Shown here: piece after piece, positions 26,234 through 34,008 of the stretch | Layout of the letters: every line of letters starts with the position of its first letter | How positions within the stretch are numbered: the stretch's first letter is position 1 | Assembly: GCA_000002435.2 (NCBI GenBank) | Contig: CM018789.1 | From: Giardia intestinalis | Taxonomy: Eukaryota | Strand: one strand, 5' to 3' | Length of the DNA stretch: 64,000 nucleotides | Program-made: the position numbers and the translations under genes | Notes under the pieces: model-generated | What the model was told of the DNA's origin: nothing | Databases searched by the model: none | The model's input: only the letters and a program-made list of their open reading frames with translations

Positions 26234-29200
26234 TCACTTAGGAGTGGTGTAGGGCAAGGCAGAACCAGGCGTGCCACAAAAGAACCTCTCTATATGCTTT
26301 TGAATGCTCTGCGGAGAAATTCTGTTATGGGTTTTGAACGCAGAGGCAGTGATTGGAGAGAATTGGCACACGTTGTAGTACTGTTGGACAACGACTAGCA
26401 CATTGTTAAGTACGTAGTCTTGGATTTTTCTTTGAAGAGACGCGGAGGGCACAGTGGCTGTGACATGAGCATCCAAAAGAGGGAGAATCAGACCCTCAAA
26501 TTTTGGTAGGCAAGATGTTAGTGTGGCAGTGATCCTTCTGCTCTTGATGGATGCGTGAGACGCTGGCCTTTGAGTCCCTCCAAGGGTCTCCGTGTCATCT
26601 TGGACTTCAGACGCTGTCCAGGACTCTGGCACACATTCCGTCCCTTCTATGCGAGCAGAGACTTCTCGAGCCTGGTCGAGCACCACTGAGAGCTCACTCA
26701 TTACGACCTTGGTAATTACATGACTATTTCGTTCGTGCCACTTGTCATAGACATGTTGCAAATCACTTATAAGGCGGCGCAGATCAAGCGCAACAAGAGC
26801 TGGCTTCCATATCATTTCATAGTACTTGGCAACTAAATTATCTACTTGCTTGCGTATAAATCTCGAATACTCGTGTGAAACAAGGCTACGCAAGGGTCCG
26901 TTGTCGGAACTGACAGCTTCAGAAAGGTAGTTCAGGTTGTTGAGCTTAAATAGGTAGCTGTTCACCAGGCCCTTGGGTGGTTGAGTGCGGTACAAAAGAA
27001 TGCACGACAAATAGTAGAGCTTCTGTTCGAGAACGGCCGTCTTCAGACTCTCAGACCCTGAGGGGAAGAGGTAGTCCTGGAGAACAAATTCTGCCCCACT
27101 GTCCACGAATGTGGTGGCTGAAAAGCCTGTAGAAGTGCAGACCTGATTGACATTGCCATTATGCGGGGCAGTATCCTCTATGGATGCATTGGCAAGGAGT
27201 GCAGGAGAGAGCGCCTGAGCCACTTTCACGATATCTGAGCAAAGAGAGATGCTCTTCGAGTAGAGACCCTGCTGATTGAGCCAAAGAATGATATTTGGTA
27301 ATTCTGAGATTATATTAATGCTGTCTGTACGTGTTGGAATGACGAAGAGCGTTTCTTCAAAGGCAGTAAGCACCTCCTTACTCTTGAGAGCGACACAGAT
27401 CACTAACAGTAGAAAGTCATGTCTGAGGCTATCAAATGTAGAGAGATTAAGGTCTGACTTAGTGTATTGATAGTATAGGAGCTGGTCTAAGAAGTTTCGC
27501 TGATTGAGACTACAAGATACGACGCTACTAGAGAGAGGACCAAGCATGTCAATGATGGCTGTGTAGAGCTTTGGCAAAGACGTGAAGAGATCCCCATGAA
27601 CTATGTTGTTGATGGCATCGAATGGAATGTTCCACGTGAACTTACTAGCAGTAGAACTGTCGGTGTCCACAGTGCCCTGGGAAGTCATCAAGAGAGTACC
27701 ATTCATTCCCATGCCGTTTATAAATGAGCTCTCACTGTCGTAAACAGTGGTCTCCTTCCCTATAGCCTGAGCAACAAGCTTGCTCGGCGCGTCAGTCATC
27801 GGCAAGCCACCAAGAGAAAAGCTGAGTATTTCCGTGTAGTTAGTCAAGAAAACAATAGGTATCATGGCGTGTAATACTTGTAGTATATCAAGAGTCTCGA
27901 AGGTTAAGCGCTTAGTGTCAATGTTAGAAATCAGCCCAAGACACACTTGGCAGACATATTGAAGAACTGGCGTGGCAATATACGAATAGCAGACGTCCAT
28001 TAGCCTACATGCGCTTTCTACTAGAGGCTTGCTATCGGCTATTAGCCCTGAGCTAAAGGGTGTCGCGTCACCGCAGTAGTGGGAAAGCATCAAGTTAATG
28101 AACATGACAAGCTGTTCACGCTCGTCCAAAAGCATAGACAAGACGTACACAAAATAGTAGTAAAATGGATGTGATTCCTGCTTATAAAGAGCAGGCGGTG
28201 GTGATGAAGCAGGCCCGTCTTCGATGGCCTTGATGTAGTCTGACCTGTTGAAAGAGGCCACACCCTCTTTGAGCTTTGCTCGGTGTAAGTGTGCAAGTAG
28301 GCGCAACGGCACAGAGAGTTGTGTGTCCCCACGGATTGGTGAGTCATGAATAGGTGGGATGGGCTGAGTATCGTTGAATAATAGATAGTCCTTTAGATCC
28401 CTGCTGTTCTTAATTTTCAAGGTATCAGGAAGCTTCTTCAAGAAGTCAAGGATTGCTATCAGAAGGGTCTCAGTCCTCAGTTTAGAAGTATCCATGGCGG
28501 GTACACCTTTTAGTTTGGAGTAGGCTCTTGACTTGAGAACTCCGTAAGATGATACGATACTAGAGCACACACGTAGTAGAAAGTCTATGCGCTGATTCAT
28601 GAACTCTAAAAAGGCGTCCTTGAAGGTGCCAGGAGATGCCGGAGATGCTATAAGGGCATCAAACAGAGCTAGAAACGAGGAATTTAGTGCTGAAGGTCGT
28701 CCATTGTCATAAATGGTGTTTGCAACTTGAGCACTGGGAGAGGCGTCCAGGGATGCTGCAAGGGTTATATGCTTCAGGAGATAATAGAGAGGCGTGTTTG
28801 GAAGAAGCCGCTCGACAAAGTCGGCAAACATCTGCACATGGAATCGCAATAACGAGTGGAGTTCTAGGGCTACCTTACCAGCTCCTTGTGTTACAAGAGA
28901 AGTTGTCCGCGAAAGGCCTGAATTTGAAAGCAAAACACCGCTTGCTGATCCTTCGACGAACACTAGTATATCTCGGCGCTGAATATAGAACCGGTGTGTC
29001 TTTGTGGCTATTAGTCGTTTAATAGCAAATAGACTCTGGTCGATACCTTGCTGGATCTCTCCCAGCAGCTCTGTGCTGCAGTCTGCAAAAGTCTCATGAA
29101 TAAATTTCCTCCCCTTCAGCATGGCTGCAATATTCTGGCCAAGGTTGGACTGGTCCACCTCTGTGGGATTCTGACTCTGCGAAATAGTTGCAATGAAGTT

Positions 29201-29443
29201 CAGCGCTTTGCGTATCTCTGCGACGCATGCATTATATGCCTTTGCTTCTTTTTCCAACGCAAGGATGTTAAGCACTTCGTGGCCTGCAGAGTGCGCTGGG
29301 TCCTGGTCTGCTCCGGGTGGATCTAAAATGTCCAACTGACTTTCTAATTTGGAAGCAATATCCAGCATTGATGAGAACAGCCCACGCTGTTGTTCAATGG
29401 TCGCAGTTATCCAGGACAGGAGGCCTGGAAGACTAGTACTCAT
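26234..29443 (-). CDS. Large hypothetical alpha-helical protein (1069 aa)
   Basis: 3.2-kb ORF with ATG start; helical repeat-like composition. Its TGA stop (26236-26234) abuts the downstream HCMP region. Confidence 0.75.
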   Translation of the reverse strand: MSTSLPGLLSWITATIEQQRGLFSSMLDIASKLESQLDILDPPGADQDPAHSAGHEVLNILALEKEAKAYNACVAEIRKALNFIATISQSQNPTEVDQSNLGQNIAAMLKGRKFIHETFADCSTELLGEIQQGIDQSLFAIKRLIATKTHRFYIQRRDILVFVEGSASGVLLSNSGLSRTTSLVTQGAGKVALELHSLLRFHVQMFADFVERLLPNTPLYYLLKHITLAASLDASPSAQVANTIYDNGRPSALNSSFLALFDALIASPASPGTFKDAFLEFMNQRIDFLLRVCSSIVSSYGVLKSRAYSKLKGVPAMDTSKLRTETLLIAILDFLKKLPDTLKIKNSRDLKDYLLFNDTQPIPPIHDSPIRGDTQLSVPLRLLAHLHRAKLKEGVASFNRSDYIKAIEDGPASSPPPALYKQESHPFYYYFVYVLSMLLDEREQLVMFINLMLSHYCGDATPFSSGLIADSKPLVESACRLMDVCYSYIATPVLQYVCQVCLGLISNIDTKRLTFETLDILQVLHAMIPIVFLTNYTEILSFSLGGLPMTDAPSKLVAQAIGKETTVYDSESSFINGMGMNGTLLMTSQGTVDTDSSTASKFTWNIPFDAINNIVHGDLFTSLPKLYTAIIDMLGPLSSSVVSCSLNQRNFLDQLLYYQYTKSDLNLSTFDSLRHDFLLLVICVALKSKEVLTAFEETLFVIPTRTDSINIISELPNIILWLNQQGLYSKSISLCSDIVKVAQALSPALLANASIEDTAPHNGNVNQVCTSTGFSATTFVDSGAEFVLQDYLFPSGSESLKTAVLEQKLYYLSCILLYRTQPPKGLVNSYLFKLNNLNYLSEAVSSDNGPLRSLVSHEYSRFIRKQVDNLVAKYYEMIWKPALVALDLRRLISDLQHVYDKWHERNSHVITKVVMSELSVVLDQAREVSARIEGTECVPESWTASEVQDDTETLGGTQRPASHASIKSRRITATLTSCLPKFEGLILPLLDAHVTATVPSASLQRKIQDYVLNNVLVVVQQYYNVCQFSPITASAFKTHNRISPQSIQKHIERFFCGTPGSALPYTTPK

Positions 29444-29468: not shown

Positions 29469-32354
29469 TTACGTTCTGAGCATCTTGATGGCTGCTAAAA
29501 TATTATCTATGCCTTCGCGCACTTCTTTGCCGTCCTTGACATCTCTAAGCAACTTCTCACATTCAGATAGGGCAAACCGTTCGTGTCTTGTCGCTAAAGC
29601 CTTGGCGCAATACTCCCCAATCTCATCAAACGGAACGACAACCTGCTCTGTCGTCGATAGATTCTTCACGTTAATGACTCGATTCTCTATCTCATCGCCG
29701 CCGATAATAAGGGCGAGGAGAGCATGGCCTGCCACGCCTTCATCAATGTCCTTTTTCAGTAGCTTCTGGCTGCACCCTTCTTTACAACTCATGCCCACAG
29801 AGATGCCTAGTCCCCAAAGGATTCCTGCCACTTCTAGGCGGGCCTCTATGGTGCACCCCGGTGCTCCACAAATATAAACATCATATCGCTTGGCAGACGC
29901 CAACTTGCATGAGGAACCACCGTCCTCAACGTCCCCAGTCGCTAGGCCATCAAGTGATGCTTGCCGTGCTTCCAGAATGGCAAATATGCGTTCTATCCCT
30001 ATGCTTCCCCCGACTGCGCAAAGCTCGTCTCCCCGTGCTCTAAACTTACCTAGCAGCTCATCATAACGTCCCCCTCCTGCTATCGATCCTGTGCGCTCTC
30101 CGTGGTCAGAGATCAGCTTTGCTTCGAAAACCATTCCGGTGTAGTAGTCAAGTCCTCGCGCTAACGAGAAGTCCAGCACCATATACTCTAGTGACTGCGG
30201 ACACATGAGTGAGGCATATCTAAAAAGAAGACCTAGTTGCTCAAGCCTTGGGCTGATCGCGTCGATGAATTGAGAGGAGAGCGTGCTGTCCAAAGAAATA
30301 GATGCATGCAGCTCCTTAAGAGCCGCGATCGCAGTGGACACGAAGTCAAAGGGAGAGTTGGCAAACATGTGCGGGGATGTAGGAAGCTTAAAGTCAATTA
30401 AAGCTAAAACCGTGTCGGCCACAACAGGAGTGAGCCCCTTGGACTTCACGATCTTATCCCTTACTTCCTCCTTGGAGTGCTTATCCAGCTGGTCGATACA
30501 GCTGCACACCGCCTTTTTCTGCTCATCTGAAACACCTGCCACTGCCATCGCTGAGTCGAGTATGCCGCGGTGATTTATCAATATTTCGAAGTTACGGATG
30601 CTCTTCCTTAGAGCATGCAGAATCTCAAATACAATAACTACGACCTCAGCGTCAGCAGCCATCGGTGCCTGCGTGTTGGGCTCATAGACAATATCCAGAT
30701 CGCATTGATAAAACTCACGAAAACGCCCCTTTTCCATAACAGGCTTGTCTCGTCTGTAAACGCGCCCGATGGAATAGCGCTTAATCGACTTCTCCCTGTG
30801 TGTGGCACAATAGCGCGCAAACGGGACCGTTAAATCATACCGAAGAGATAGAGGTTCCTCCCCATAATCAGAGACATTGTAAATCAGCTTCTGCTCTTCG
30901 CCATACTTGCCCATCAGCACAGACCGCGATTCCATGACTGGGGTCTCTATGCAGACGGCGCCATGTTGTTGAAATACGCTCGTTATCAGTGAAAGAGCAG
31001 CTTGCCTAAGCACCATCTGTCCAGGGAGCAAGTCACGCATACCGCACGGAGGCTGGGGGATGCGAGCGTTAGAAATAGCAAGGAAGAGGTGGTCAGTCAT
31101 GGCACGCACGATCCTCGAGATACACCAAAACTGGTGCGCACCGGATGCGGACTGACATTCTCTAAAAAGATCACCATAGGTATCCATAGCTATCAGTACC
31201 CCCTGGCCCACTTGTATCTTCCCCTTGGAAAGTCCTGCTTGAGCAATAGATAGCTTGGTAAAGGCAGACAGCAACTCTGTAGAAAGGTCCTTGAGAACAC
31301 CACATAGCTGCACAGGGAGTAGCAGCGCGTGCAAAACCGGCACTGGCTCCTTCTTTAGTGCGTCTAGCATCTCGCTTTCCGCAACCCCGTATGCATCGTC
31401 CGAGGGTGCTTTCCAAATCCCCTTTTCTACCACGACAGCATCGACCAAGTGGCGGCGTGCAATCGACAGTGAACGGATAGTCGCTATCTTCAACTGTACG
31501 CCGTGTAGGAGAGAAAGTGTTGTTACATCAGTCAAAGGCCTTGTATCGAGACTAGTGTATGCTGCCGAAGCCGTATCCGGTCGCACGGCGGTTCGCAACT
31601 CCGTGGCCAGCTCACGTATCTCCCCAGCCAATGATAGCGACTGTGAGCAGAACAAATTACTCCCTTTCTGAGTTACCTTTTTAGAGCCAGATATAAGACT
31701 CATCACGTTTGACATGGCTGCCTTCATCCCAGAGTGCTTTCGCTGAACGGTATAATTGACGAAGTCAAATAACTCTCTAACCCTTGCACACATAAGTTCG
31801 AAAGAAAAGGAAAGAGCAGCCTCATGGAGCGTGGCTACAAAGGACAGGAGAATGGACGACGCAAATGACACGGACAGGGTAAAGGCATGAGCATTTAGCT
31901 TGAAAATGTTAATATCTTCGTCCGATAGCTCGATGTAGAAAGGGTTATCTGGGCCCTCGGTGAGAATAGAGAGCAGCTGATCCAGCAAGTCTTTTTCAAG
32001 TGCAGAGTTCGGAAGGAGCACACACTCTGGTCGCTGAAGGGCGATGTCTTTTGGGCCGTTGAGGATTCTGGTTAGGCCTTGGAGGACAGTTATCGAAACA
32101 GAGGCAGGGCTACTGGCCAGGAGCGAAAGCATTGTGAATATGTACGCCCGTGACAGGACGTACGGTACTGAGCGGTACTTTCCCGAAAAAAGGGTGGCAT
32201 AATGGTAGGGTGCCCGAGGCACTGGGTTCTCGGGAGCAGGGAGGAAAGCAGCGAAAACAGATGCGTCAAGGACAATGGGAGCCCTGCAATAGCAAACGTT
32301 GTAAAAGCTTTCGAGAGTCAGTGAGGTACCGCCCAGCTCGACCACCGGTAACAT
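29469..32354 (-). CDS. hisS: Histidyl-tRNA synthetase (class IIa) carrying a ~430-aa in-frame N-terminal extension of unknown function
   Basis: The C-terminal 530 aa hold the canonical HisRS motifs: 'GMRDLLPGQ', 'LMGKYGEEQKLIYNV', 'LSLRYDLTVPFARY', 'KRYSIGRVYRRDKP', 'GRFREFYQCDLDI', 'LARGLDYYTGMVFE', 'AGGGRYDEL', and an anticodon-binding tail. They are collinear with human HARS 'KTPKGTRDY...LSLRYDLTVPFARY...GRYREFYQCDFDI...GGGRYDGL'. The upstream 431 codons are in frame, with an ATG start and no stop. Confidence 0.9.
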   Translation of the reverse strand: MLPVVELGGTSLTLESFYNVCYCRAPIVLDASVFAAFLPAPENPVPRAPYHYATLFSGKYRSVPYVLSRAYIFTMLSLLASSPASVSITVLQGLTRILNGPKDIALQRPECVLLPNSALEKDLLDQLLSILTEGPDNPFYIELSDEDINIFKLNAHAFTLSVSFASSILLSFVATLHEAALSFSFELMCARVRELFDFVNYTVQRKHSGMKAAMSNVMSLISGSKKVTQKGSNLFCSQSLSLAGEIRELATELRTAVRPDTASAAYTSLDTRPLTDVTTLSLLHGVQLKIATIRSLSIARRHLVDAVVVEKGIWKAPSDDAYGVAESEMLDALKKEPVPVLHALLLPVQLCGVLKDLSTELLSAFTKLSIAQAGLSKGKIQVGQGVLIAMDTYGDLFRECQSASGAHQFWCISRIVRAMTDHLFLAISNARIPQPPCGMRDLLPGQMVLRQAALSLITSVFQQHGAVCIETPVMESRSVLMGKYGEEQKLIYNVSDYGEEPLSLRYDLTVPFARYCATHREKSIKRYSIGRVYRRDKPVMEKGRFREFYQCDLDIVYEPNTQAPMAADAEVVVIVFEILHALRKSIRNFEILINHRGILDSAMAVAGVSDEQKKAVCSCIDQLDKHSKEEVRDKIVKSKGLTPVVADTVLALIDFKLPTSPHMFANSPFDFVSTAIAALKELHASISLDSTLSSQFIDAISPRLEQLGLLFRYASLMCPQSLEYMVLDFSLARGLDYYTGMVFEAKLISDHGERTGSIAGGGRYDELLGKFRARGDELCAVGGSIGIERIFAILEARQASLDGLATGDVEDGGSSCKLASAKRYDVYICGAPGCTIEARLEVAGILWGLGISVGMSCKEGCSQKLLKKDIDEGVAGHALLALIIGGDEIENRVINVKNLSTTEQVVVPFDEIGEYCAKALATRHERFALSECEKLLRDVKDGKEVREGIDNILAAIKMLRT

Positions 32355-32370
32355 CGCGAGATTTAAAATT

Positions 32371-34008
32371 ATGAAGTGTTTTTGCAGGACACGGCTACAC
32401 TATGACGCAGATAAGAATATGAGTTTACTTGTAAAGGAAATGGTGGAAGCGATGTACCAAGGCGTTAGCGTAATTTTTGCCAGCCTCGATACGTCCTATG
32501 ATTCTGTTCTAATTTATATGCTTCAGAATGGCTTTACCCTATTAGATTCTCGTTTCTATACTCAGTTTCAATACATAAGTCTCGCCACATTTGCGGAAGC
32601 CACACATCTGGCAGATCCCCTTATGACACTTGATACGTTCTTAGATCACGCTGTAAGGTTAGTCCCCAAGGACACCAAGGATGCACTCATGATTATAGAT
32701 CACGGGTCCTTCTTGGGGGGACCTTATAGCCTGACAACTATTACAAGTCTAGCTCAACTCATAGTGCATCACTCAGAGAATCACGGTACGCATGGGAATC
32801 CTACACATGTGAATCAGGCACACACTGATAAAAAGCATTCGGTGCGGCATAAGTGGCCCGACAGCCTTTCCTTTGTTCTTAGCTTTGATAGTCATGTAAT
32901 GTCTTCCCAGGAGCTCATTTACCTCCTTCTTAATGTACCGTCCCTCTACATTGATAATAGGGTTATACCTCACGACCATAACAATATCTTGCGGGTTCCC
33001 AGCAATGTTGGGATTGAAAGTCTGAGTAGCATTCTGAACCCTCTGTTAGTAGTTATTCTTTCCAAACTACTCAGCAAATCTGAGTCCAATCTCAAATCAG
33101 CGTCTTTGCATGCAGACCATAGTGCGTGCTACAAGGAATTGTTAGCTCTGCACTCTCGATGCGAAGCTTTCCAATCATTCATAGAAACGTCGTTGGCAGC
33201 AAACCCTAACAGCTTAGTGCTTACTAAGGAGATAGTAGAGCTGCTTGCTAGCAGACCAGCTATGCCGGCATCCTATGATCGCCTTCTTACTGAGCACGCT
33301 AAGTCAGGTGAAGAGCACGACCATAGACTTGGGCTACAAAGCATTTCTTCTCAGGTAGACACGGTCTCCCCGGCCCTCAGCGTCAATACAGATCTTAGCT
33401 GGATGCTGAGTCCAGACTACAATGCTCATGCTAACAACAAGTCTAGACACTCGCTACCCTCTGAACAGCGGCCTACACACGATGCTCACTCCAAGCTAAC
33501 TATAGCATATCTGGAGCATGACCAGAAAGCCCAGCAGCCTACAACAGAGGAACTAGAAAAGAAGGGCCCTGAAAGAAGCCCCGATCATTTGCGTCGTTCA
33601 AGCAAGGAAAAGTCTCTCCTACTAACTACATCCGTGCCCAATATGGGGCCGTATTTAGAGCAGATCCTTCACCAGAGCGAGTCTAGCACTATAGAGCAGC
33701 CGGCAGTCATCCTCCCGGCAGTTGCAAAGCGTCTAACAAGCATTTCGTCATTGGCCTGGTCACAGTCACCGAAGGAAAACAAATCGTCAAGCAACTCACC
33801 TAACAATGATACCATCGATGCGAACGTAGAGAAGGTCCCTAACTCTACATCGACTGTGACTATACCCACACATGCACCCGTAACGCCTCCTTCCTTGGTG
33901 CAGTCTCCACCGGCGAAAGCACAGGGGCTTCGTATGGTGACAAAAGGAAAAGGTGTTAAGCTTTCCGGCTCGCAGTCAAATGAGGCGCACCGGGCAGAGA
34001 AAACATAG
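32371..34008 (+). CDS. Hypothetical protein (545 aa), S/T/P-rich C-terminal half
   Basis: The ATG at 32371 is preceded by 'ATTTAAAATT' and lies 16 bp from the divergent HisRS ATG; an alternative ATG (MSLLVKEM) is at 32419. Confidence 0.6.
   Translation: MKCFCRTRLHYDADKNMSLLVKEMVEAMYQGVSVIFASLDTSYDSVLIYMLQNGFTLLDSRFYTQFQYISLATFAEATHLADPLMTLDTFLDHAVRLVPKDTKDALMIIDHGSFLGGPYSLTTITSLAQLIVHHSENHGTHGNPTHVNQAHTDKKHSVRHKWPDSLSFVLSFDSHVMSSQELIYLLLNVPSLYIDNRVIPHDHNNILRVPSNVGIESLSSILNPLLVVILSKLLSKSESNLKSASLHADHSACYKELLALHSRCEAFQSFIETSLAANPNSLVLTKEIVELLASRPAMPASYDRLLTEHAKSGEEHDHRLGLQSISSQVDTVSPALSVNTDLSWMLSPDYNAHANNKSRHSLPSEQRPTHDAHSKLTIAYLEHDQKAQQPTTEELEKKGPERSPDHLRRSSKEKSLLLTTSVPNMGPYLEQILHQSESSTIEQPAVILPAVAKRLTSISSLAWSQSPKENKSSSNSPNNDTIDANVEKVPNSTSTVTIPTHAPVTPPSLVQSPPAKAQGLRMVTKGKGVKLSGSQSNEAHRAEKT

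Follow-up and report, generated by a model that had tools for sequence, protein, structure and literature searches.

Histidyl-tRNA synthetase (HisRS) of Giardia intestinalis is encoded on contig CM018789.1 (assembly GCA_000002435.2), a 64,000-nucleotide (nt) stretch of which is referred to here as the window. In the open reading frame (ORF) listing of the window, the gene is a single ATG-initiated ORF of 961 amino acids (aa) plus a stop codon, located on the minus strand at 29469..32354 with its start ATG at 32354-32352. In a published paper, the Giardia HisRS gene bears the identifier GL50803_22808, is named simply histidyl-tRNA synthetase, and is co-regulated with other synthetases. An earlier note on this DNA described the same continuous 961-aa ORF, with an ATG at 32354 and a divergent gene 16 bp away, and its coordinates are exact. 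It also confined the HisRS core to the C-terminal ~530 aa, and this agrees with both a Pfam scan and an alignment with human HisRS, so that the first 431 codons (31062-32354) are extra. With a probability of about 0.85, the protein is a cytosolic HisRS whose extension is a pseudoenzyme domain with the fold of histidine ammonia-lyase (HAL), devoid of the 4-methylidene-imidazol-5-one (MIO) triad, homologous to the HAL-like domain of plant and algal HisRS, and serving as a non-catalytic structural module. The main features of the locus are as follows.

29469..32354, minus strand: entire coding sequence (961 codons and stop) of Giardia HisRS, in which a HAL-like domain precedes the histidyl-tRNA synthetase
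31062..32354, minus strand: residues 1-431, predicted MIO-less pseudoenzyme domain with a HAL/PAL fold (L-aspartase-like superfamily)
29985..31043, minus strand: residues 438-790, class II HisRS catalytic domain (PF13393, human HisRS alignment)
29604..29840, minus strand: residues 839-917, HGTP anticodon-binding domain (PF03129)
29472..29603, minus strand: residues 918-961, short C-terminal tail of ~45 residues beyond the anticodon-binding domain
32355..32370, no strand: 16-nt intergenic spacer, common with the divergent neighbour, with AT-rich AATTTTAAAT immediately 5' of the ATG

In the Pfam scan, PF13393 matched residues 438-790 with an expectation value (E) of 1.2e-30 (107 bits), and PF03129 matched residues 839-917 with 21.6 bits (cutoff 21). 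The alignment with human cytoplasmic HisRS (4g84) spans residues 434-914 (E 5e-85), the start of the core reading CGMRD in Giardia and KGTRD in the human enzyme. Motif 2 (FREFYQCD), motif 3 (GGSIGIER), and the histidine-binding sequences RGLDYYTG and GGGRYD were recognized by eye and are invariant across the Giardia family alignment. The protein thus has the catalytic domain, the class II and HisA/HisB motifs, and the HGTP domain of a class IIa HisRS, and residues ~433-917 make up what is, judging from sequence, a complete and apparently active class II HisRS. The C-terminal tail (918-961) lies outside the human HisRS alignment; G. muris and Spironucleus have it too. WHEP (PF00458), a helix-turn-helix of about 50-60 residues, was not detected in the 961-aa protein by the Pfam scan. 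The HisRS insertion domain (residues ~650-705, approximately 30240-30410, minus strand) is longer than its counterpart in human HisRS and shows the lowest conservation within the core, with ~12 residues missing in G. muris.

Evidence on the extension comes from both structure and sequence. A single-sequence AlphaFold prediction of the extension was unusable, with a predicted local distance difference test score (pLDDT) of 37. In contrast, an AlphaFold2 model computed from seven Giardia extensions, with neither HAL sequences nor templates in the input, reached a pLDDT of 61 and a predicted template modelling score (pTM) of 0.64; its long helices are confidently predicted, and it has one hairpin at the N-terminus and a small one at residues 308-315. 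When this model was compared with 350,542 PDB chains using Foldseek, all of the top 50 matches were PAL, HAL, phenylalanine aminomutase or ergothionase (best E 9e-4, template modelling scores of 0.36-0.45). This outcome indicates that the predicted fold is that of the L-aspartase-like superfamily, with the HAL/PAL family as its nearest members. A structure search of residues 1-431 was one of the checks proposed in the earlier note, which had treated the extension as a domain of unknown origin. That description no longer holds in view of the Foldseek and profile comparisons, and the weak lead offered alongside it, a HAL-like character of the first ~35 residues, was correct and extends over the whole domain.

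The profile comparisons were made with a HAL family set of 12 diverse proteins, consisting of Pseudomonas putida HAL and eleven HAL, PAL-like, and aminomutase genes from plasmid records. The P. putida sequence used is 98-99% identical to Pseudomonas hutH genes. With hhalign, the Giardia extensions matched this set with a score of 30.9 (P 0.005), extension residues 4-410 being collinear with HAL residues 1-482. Null scores were 16.1 +/- 2.4 for column shuffles, 15.7 for the reversed query, and 19.6 +/- 3.4, with a maximum of 30.7, for shuffles of 15-column blocks; at the level of sequence, the match is significant but modest. Against a low-diversity (Pseudomonas-only) HAL alignment, hhalign returned an E of 0.59 and a non-collinear match. 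Two members of the 12-sequence alignment, a Klebsiella plasmid gene labelled "Histidine ammonia-lyase" (L086) and a Rhizobium plasmid hutH (L087), show Tyr and gaps at the MIO Ala-Ser-Gly columns, and this pattern may be an alignment artefact or may represent MIO-less bacterial paralogues.

Sub-threshold matches to PF00221, the aromatic amino-acid lyase family of Pfam, occur in three assemblage-B-like extensions (best 21.7 bits, E 9.5e-5, cutoff 27.3), and all three pair extension residues 153-230 with profile positions 185-260. Other weak Pfam matches, to SmaI, GhoS, Zw10_N, and HAD_Pex22 (E 0.1-0.4), were inconsistent between orthologues and were discarded as noise. Searches of PDB sequences with the extension alone, by phmmer and by profile hmmsearch, produced only chance-level matches (PorM, cytochrome c6, arabinitol dehydrogenase). 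Likewise, an exhaustive phmmer search with the extension against 1.84 billion representatives recovered two Giardia clusters only. A word-indexed search with the extension alone found nothing, including the near-identical orthologues that are found with the full-length query, which points to the sensitivity of the tool. Within the extension, the following segments can be delimited.

32244..32354, minus strand: residues 1-37, N-terminal hairpin plus helix, VELGGTSLTLESFY...IVLDASV; matches the HAL N-terminus (...LQLDASA) as well as Spironucleus and algal-type N-termini
31896..32054, minus strand: residues 101-153, putative degenerate remnant of the MIO-loop region, with PEC at the place of HAL GSxGASGDL; modelled with low confidence, and 10 residues shorter in G. 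muris through a deletion
31665..31898, minus strand: residues 153-230, best sequence-level HAL match (PF00221 profile 185-260 in orthologues); contains ALSFSFELMCA, RKHSGMK (HAL RPHxGQ), and GSKK
31407..31430, minus strand: residues 309-316, VEKGIWKA, predicted to form a beta-hairpin and better conserved than any other part of the extension; GNWK in Spironucleus
31200..31226, minus strand: residues 377-385, KGKIQVGQG, a conserved loop ~50 residues before the core; KGKLQIGEG in Spironucleus and LG(K/R)G in algal-type long HisRS

A bridge to HAL is provided by long HisRS from outside the genus. In a search with the core only, many of the closest relatives were themselves long, such as those of Spironucleus salmonicida (811 aa) and Aduncisulcus paluster (838 aa) and a set from uncultured eukaryotes (787-892 aa). 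For two of the long proteins, P0021 (926 aa) and P0087 (862 aa), the precomputed annotation includes PF00221; on rescanning, they scored 64 and 59 bits, respectively, against the cutoff of 27.3. A third, P0082, whose cluster includes the green alga Picocystis salinarum, remained sub-threshold at 16 bits. All three match the same central part of PF00221 as the Giardia sequences do, and their N-termini align with real HALs at a probability of 99% (P 2.7e-18, hhalign). The diplomonad extensions in turn match these three N-termini at 89% (P 2.2e-6, score 53.8) over 224-361 collinear columns, or, with a relaxed cutoff, from extension residues 4-397 to P0021 residues 12-450. This score is >10 standard deviations (SD) above the nulls (shuffles 14.5 +/- 2.7 and 18.0 +/- 3.4; reversed query 15.7). 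Within the diplomonads, a hidden Markov model of the Giardia extension detects the Spironucleus HisRS N-terminus with 48 bits (E 4e-11 at Z = 1e6) in three collinear segments.

The diplomonad and algal-type extensions also have derived traits in common: the Tyr loop is gone, PEC replaces the MIO loop, and both groups carry ALSxExLC, R(K/P)H, GSK...KG, and, ~50 residues ahead of the core, a motif of the LG(K/R)G type. In each of these respects, the Giardia protein conforms to what is understood as a HisRS-appended HAL-like domain, i.e., a domain of ~400 residues located N-terminally in one ORF, with weak homology to HAL but without the MIO residues. The domain is not peculiar to the Giardia gene, as it is also found in Spironucleus and in algal-type HisRS and has been published for plants. 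Because Spironucleus carries a shortened extension as well, the fusion long predates the genus Giardia.

Several observations were made on other long HisRS. One set (group C), comprising P0020, P0039, P0054, P0057, P0065, P0079, P0084, P0085, P0098, P0106, P0109, P0110, and locus L096, consists of proteins of 787-864 aa from uncultured eukaryotes with compact genomes, each with an N-terminal extension of 345-390 residues. The link of these P0020-type extensions is weak (P 1.6e-3 to diplomonads and P 0.028 to HAL), and the group may represent a third offshoot of this fusion that has diverged even further. At locus L096, the long HisRS is followed after 65 bp by an Arf GTPase gene. The HisRS of A. 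paluster (P0081) has the LGRG motif ~50 residues before the core, as in other long HisRS, together with an exact internal duplication of ~66 residues at residues ~85-215 (ILAYDSPAELSLAAEMLRKCARSEKAQEADKFGVQEKFSSFGKSQLIMAISALKAVEEDSKQR), possibly an artefact of assembly or gene modelling. Finally, in each of two metagenomic proteins, P0010 (826 aa) and P0011 (794 aa), a HisRS unit is followed in tandem by a second one with degraded motifs, e.g., KVYCRASSSNRSKFQECYQGD; these proteins can be described as pseudo-dimeric HisRS.

The residues on which HAL chemistry depends were sought by mapping P. putida HAL positions through the alignment, a procedure that is approximate at such distance. Counterparts of the Tyr53 loop (YGxNTGFG), His83, the Ala142-Ser143-Gly144 MIO triad, and Glu414 are absent in Giardia. 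HAL Arg283 is replaced by an invariant Gln, Asn313 (of the DNP motif) by Arg, Phe329 by Leu, and Asn195 by Leu, and only Tyr280 among the mapped residues stays aromatic (Phe/Tyr). The MIO triad falls in an alignment gap where the Giardia sequence reads RPEC-VLLPN. Independently of alignment detail, the 8 Giardia sequences and the other fused N-termini all lack an ASG, TSG, or CSG triad at the homologous position as well as a GxNTGFG Tyr-loop motif. The absence of the triad had been claimed before, and this holds for the homologous position; it does not hold for the extension as a whole, as a lone ASG occurs at residues 403-405. That site is non-homologous, the ASG is missing in one assemblage-B-like sequence, and the segment is deleted in G. 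muris. Since the MIO triad, the Tyr loop, and the substrate-binding Arg and Glu are all lost, the extension is most readily regarded as a catalytically dead pseudoenzyme domain that would be unable to deaminate histidine.

Conservation is unevenly distributed along the extension. Identity between G. intestinalis and G. muris, and the proportion of invariant columns over the 8 Giardia sequences, are given below by segment.

Hairpin VEKGIWKA: identity 77%, invariant columns 73%
Loop KGKxQxGQG: identity 65%, invariant columns 62%
N-terminal hairpin: identity 46%, invariant columns 30%
Helix 155-198: identity 43%, invariant columns 40%
Helices 234-267: identity 42%, invariant columns 32%
Tyr-loop remnant: identity 11%, invariant columns 11%

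Because the Tyr-loop remnant is the most variable segment and the MIO-loop region has lost 10 residues in G. muris, selection acts on the helix bundle and on two surface-type motifs rather than on the former active site. HAL and PAL enzymes are tetramers built on a central helix bundle, and HisRS is a dimer. In the mechanism proposed here, the domain keeps the N-terminal hairpin and long-helix bundle of HAL while having lost its chemistry, and would serve as a non-catalytic structural module in the place occupied by the WHEP domain in animals. The HAL-type helix bundle could provide an oligomerisation or scaffold core, and the HisRS core, tRNA, or a partner protein could be contacted through VEKGIWKA and KGKxQxGQG. 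A role in scaffolding or oligomerisation and docking, analogous to that of other domains appended to synthetases, is favoured because the bundle and the two motifs are conserved, the catalytic-loop remnants are the most variable parts, and HAL/PAL tetramers are assembled through their helix bundles.

The main rival to this role is that of a sensor, in which the domain binds histidine (or urocanate) and tunes HisRS, or a non-canonical function of it, to the histidine supply. The attachment of a HAL-derived fold to the histidine synthetase, both here and in the plant literature, does suggest a histidine-related selective reason, at least at the time of fusion, and the domain is under strong purifying selection. 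However, none of the Giardia sequences keeps the residues that hold histidine in HAL, namely the Tyr53 loop, His83, Arg283 (which is Gln), and Glu414, and the active-site-loop regions are both the least conserved and the least confidently modelled. A sensor is therefore considered unlikely, though it fares better than the remaining alternatives.

A full-length query retrieves 7 full-length relatives, each covering 99-100% of it: one that is 98% identical, the 964-aa protein of G. lamblia P15 (90%), three assemblage-B-like sequences (76-79%), and G. muris plus one relative (914-915 aa, 43-44%). In these 7 other Giardia sequences the extension is collinear and in frame, without frame breaks at the junction; assemblages E (P15) and B, like G. 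muris, share the one-ORF gene model, with products of 914-964 aa, and collinearity extends to Spironucleus. By the Nei-Gojobori method, the ratio of nonsynonymous to synonymous substitution rates (dN/dS) of the extension is 0.100 versus assemblage E (P15) and 0.083 versus assemblage B, compared with 0.074 and 0.077, respectively, for the core, and constraint is not relaxed in any window along the length of the gene. The extension is 34% identical to its G. muris counterpart, and the core 54%. Comparative sequence analysis thus confirmed the extension as real coding sequence, evidently under purifying selection, as opposed to a chance ORF or an assembly artefact. The prediction of a coding extension within a single 961-aa enzyme is upheld by the 8 Giardia sequences in one frame and by a dN/dS close to that of the core, and conservation in other diplomonads, proposed for checking at the same time, was found in contiguous form in G. 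muris and in shortened form in Spironucleus.

There remains the choice of start codon, for which an internal Met had been put forward as an alternative.

31113..31115, minus strand: Met414 codon, the candidate internal start of the earlier note; Ala in G. muris

If Met414 or a nearby codon were the principal start, a HisRS of conventional length would be the main product, and the upstream frame would be separate or rarely used. The position of this in-frame Met, ~20 residues before the core, is suitable for such a product. Nevertheless, Met414 is Ala in both G. muris sequences, and the 60 nt on its 5' side are coding sequence of ~50% GC without an AT-rich initiator. In addition, the upstream codons are under selection (dN/dS ~0.1), and no stop or frameshift separates the two parts in any of the 8 Giardia, Spironucleus, or algal-type homologues. 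The annotated start, on the other hand, stands behind an AT-rich element 16 bp from a divergent gene, an arrangement typical of Giardia. The 16-nt spacer reads AATTTTAAATCTCGCG on the minus strand and separates the HisRS ATG from a divergent neighbour ORF of 545 aa that begins at 32371 (plus strand); its AT-rich segment before the ATG is consistent with a Giardia-type initiator. The distance to the divergent neighbour is 16 bp in assemblages B and E (P15) and 8 bp in G. muris, as measured in orthologous contigs. Translation would begin at the ATG at 32354, and the internal start previously suggested is accordingly not supported and is very improbable as the source of the main product, although an additional minor isoform may exist.

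Certain results weigh against the interpretation of the extension as a HAL-fold structural module. PF00221 is not matched by the extension in the window even at E <= 10, its gathering score of 27.3 bits is reached by no Giardia orthologue extension, and the profile search of PDB sequences with the extension returned no HAL. The direct Giardia-HAL profile match has a P of about 0.002-0.007, such that the case leans on the structural matches and the transitive bridge. The AlphaFold2 model itself is moderately confident, with 127 residues at pLDDT <50, and the Foldseek E is marginal (~1e-3). The mapping of individual residues through so distant an alignment is approximate. With respect to function, neither of the two most conserved motifs belongs to the helix bundle of HAL, and the main role may thus be something other than simple tetramerisation. 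A further rival holds that the resemblance to HAL is spurious and that the extension is a lineage-specific helical domain that resembles any long-helix bundle. Against this, the sequence matches run collinearly and coincide with the corresponding part of PF00221, the bridge to PF00221-positive HisRS N-termini stands >10 SD above composition- and block-preserving nulls, and the domain order is the same in the plant and algal proteins. A spurious resemblance is hence rated as still less probable than an internal start.

The least credible proposal, that the extension is an active ammonia-lyase or aminomutase in a bifunctional enzyme that both degrades and charges histidine, draws on the fold-level likeness to HAL/PAL, but the triad and the GxNTGFG motif are absent from all Giardia sequences and the other fused N-termini, Arg283, Asn313, and Glu414 are unconserved, and the plant homologue has been judged non-catalytic for the same reason (PMC7564348).

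The reading of the extension as a non-catalytic HAL-fold module has a bearing on the history of the enzyme. A broader, tentative proposal, which is somewhat doubtful at present, is that the HAL-like::HisRS fusion was not invented by plants but is ancient among eukaryotes, perhaps dating back to the last eukaryotic common ancestor. Under this scenario, Archaeplastida, diplomonads, and several lineages of uncultured protists would have kept the fusion, and animals, fungi, and others would have lost it or acquired WHEP in its place. If true, its persistence on the histidine enzyme, and on no other, over more than a billion years would point to a conserved and as yet undiscovered role in histidine-linked regulation or assembly, and the domain would represent a parasite-specific handle in Giardia that is absent from the human enzyme.

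Recognition of the domain identifies 45% of an essential Giardia enzyme that is named only HisRS or, once, "SIR2 family protein" in the sources consulted. The latter name is applied by NCBI and UniRef to the 964-aa assemblage B orthologue P0004 (L092:4001-6895), which contains HisRS domains only and no Sir2 domain; the label looks like an annotation error. The function of the domain also becomes approachable in a genetically tractable, intron-poor parasite in addition to plants.

The genes that flank HisRS are located at 26234-29443 (minus strand, 1069 aa) and 32371-34008 (plus strand, 545 aa), at distances of 25 and 16 nt, respectively. Neither has a Pfam family on record in orthologous contigs, and gene order around HisRS is kept in assemblages B and E.

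Three known systems invite comparison. The first is the cytosolic HisRS of plants (Arabidopsis At3g02760), which carries a HAL-like N-terminal domain of ~400 residues (Genes 2020, 11:1056, PMC7564348). The plant domain has 15-20% similarity to HAL, is without the MIO Ala-Ser-Gly, and is 30-40% conserved among plants versus 70-80% for the core; it has been proposed as a structural or protein-interaction module of unknown function and was stated to occur only in plants (PMC7564348). Lyase::tRNA-synthetase fusions in streptophyte algae and land plants also appear in a preprint on PAL evolution (bioRxiv 10.1101/2021.05.27.445924). A search of the paper library used found no mention of a HAL-like HisRS domain for Giardia or any non-plant. 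The Giardia domain, of ~400-430 residues, is likewise directly N-terminal to a cytosolic-type core, with weak HAL similarity, no Ala-Ser-Gly triad, and conservation below that of the core. The comparison was made with green-algal-type and metagenomic members, to which profile homology has a probability of 89% (P 2e-6) and with which LG(K/R)G, GSK...KG, and PEC are common; land-plant sequences were not directly compared. The differences are that Giardia is a diplomonad parasite (Metamonada), whereas the paper restricts the domain to plants, and that its domain is much more diverged, to the point that the extension in the window is invisible to Pfam. Restriction to plants is not what was found, given that the domain occurs in G. 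intestinalis, G. muris, and Spironucleus salmonicida. These occurrences contradict the published plant-specificity and change the question to one of an old, widespread, and unexplained appendage.

The second system is the HAL/PAL family itself (PF00221; e.g., 1B8F, P. putida HAL; 6V6H, Trypanosoma cruzi HAL; 2NYN, Anabaena variabilis PAL), with which the Giardia extension has its predicted fold in common. In contrast to these enzymes, it is without the MIO triad and Tyr loop, Arg283, Asn313, and Glu414 are unconserved, its score is below the Pfam threshold, and it is ~80 residues shorter and fused to another enzyme.

The third system is the WHEP domain of animal HisRS, which resembles the Giardia domain in being a non-catalytic accessory N-terminal module before the same conserved core start. 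It differs in fold and origin, and the Giardia domain is ~8 times larger. Since human HisRS has WHEP instead, the HAL-like domain constitutes a structural difference between parasite and host that is unexplored in Giardia HisRS drug-target work (PMC9978631); according to the same review of parasite synthetases, HisRS is unexplored as a drug target outside trypanosomes. Overall, the Giardia locus is a highly diverged, non-plant instance of an architecture known from plants, and its occurrence in diplomonads is new.

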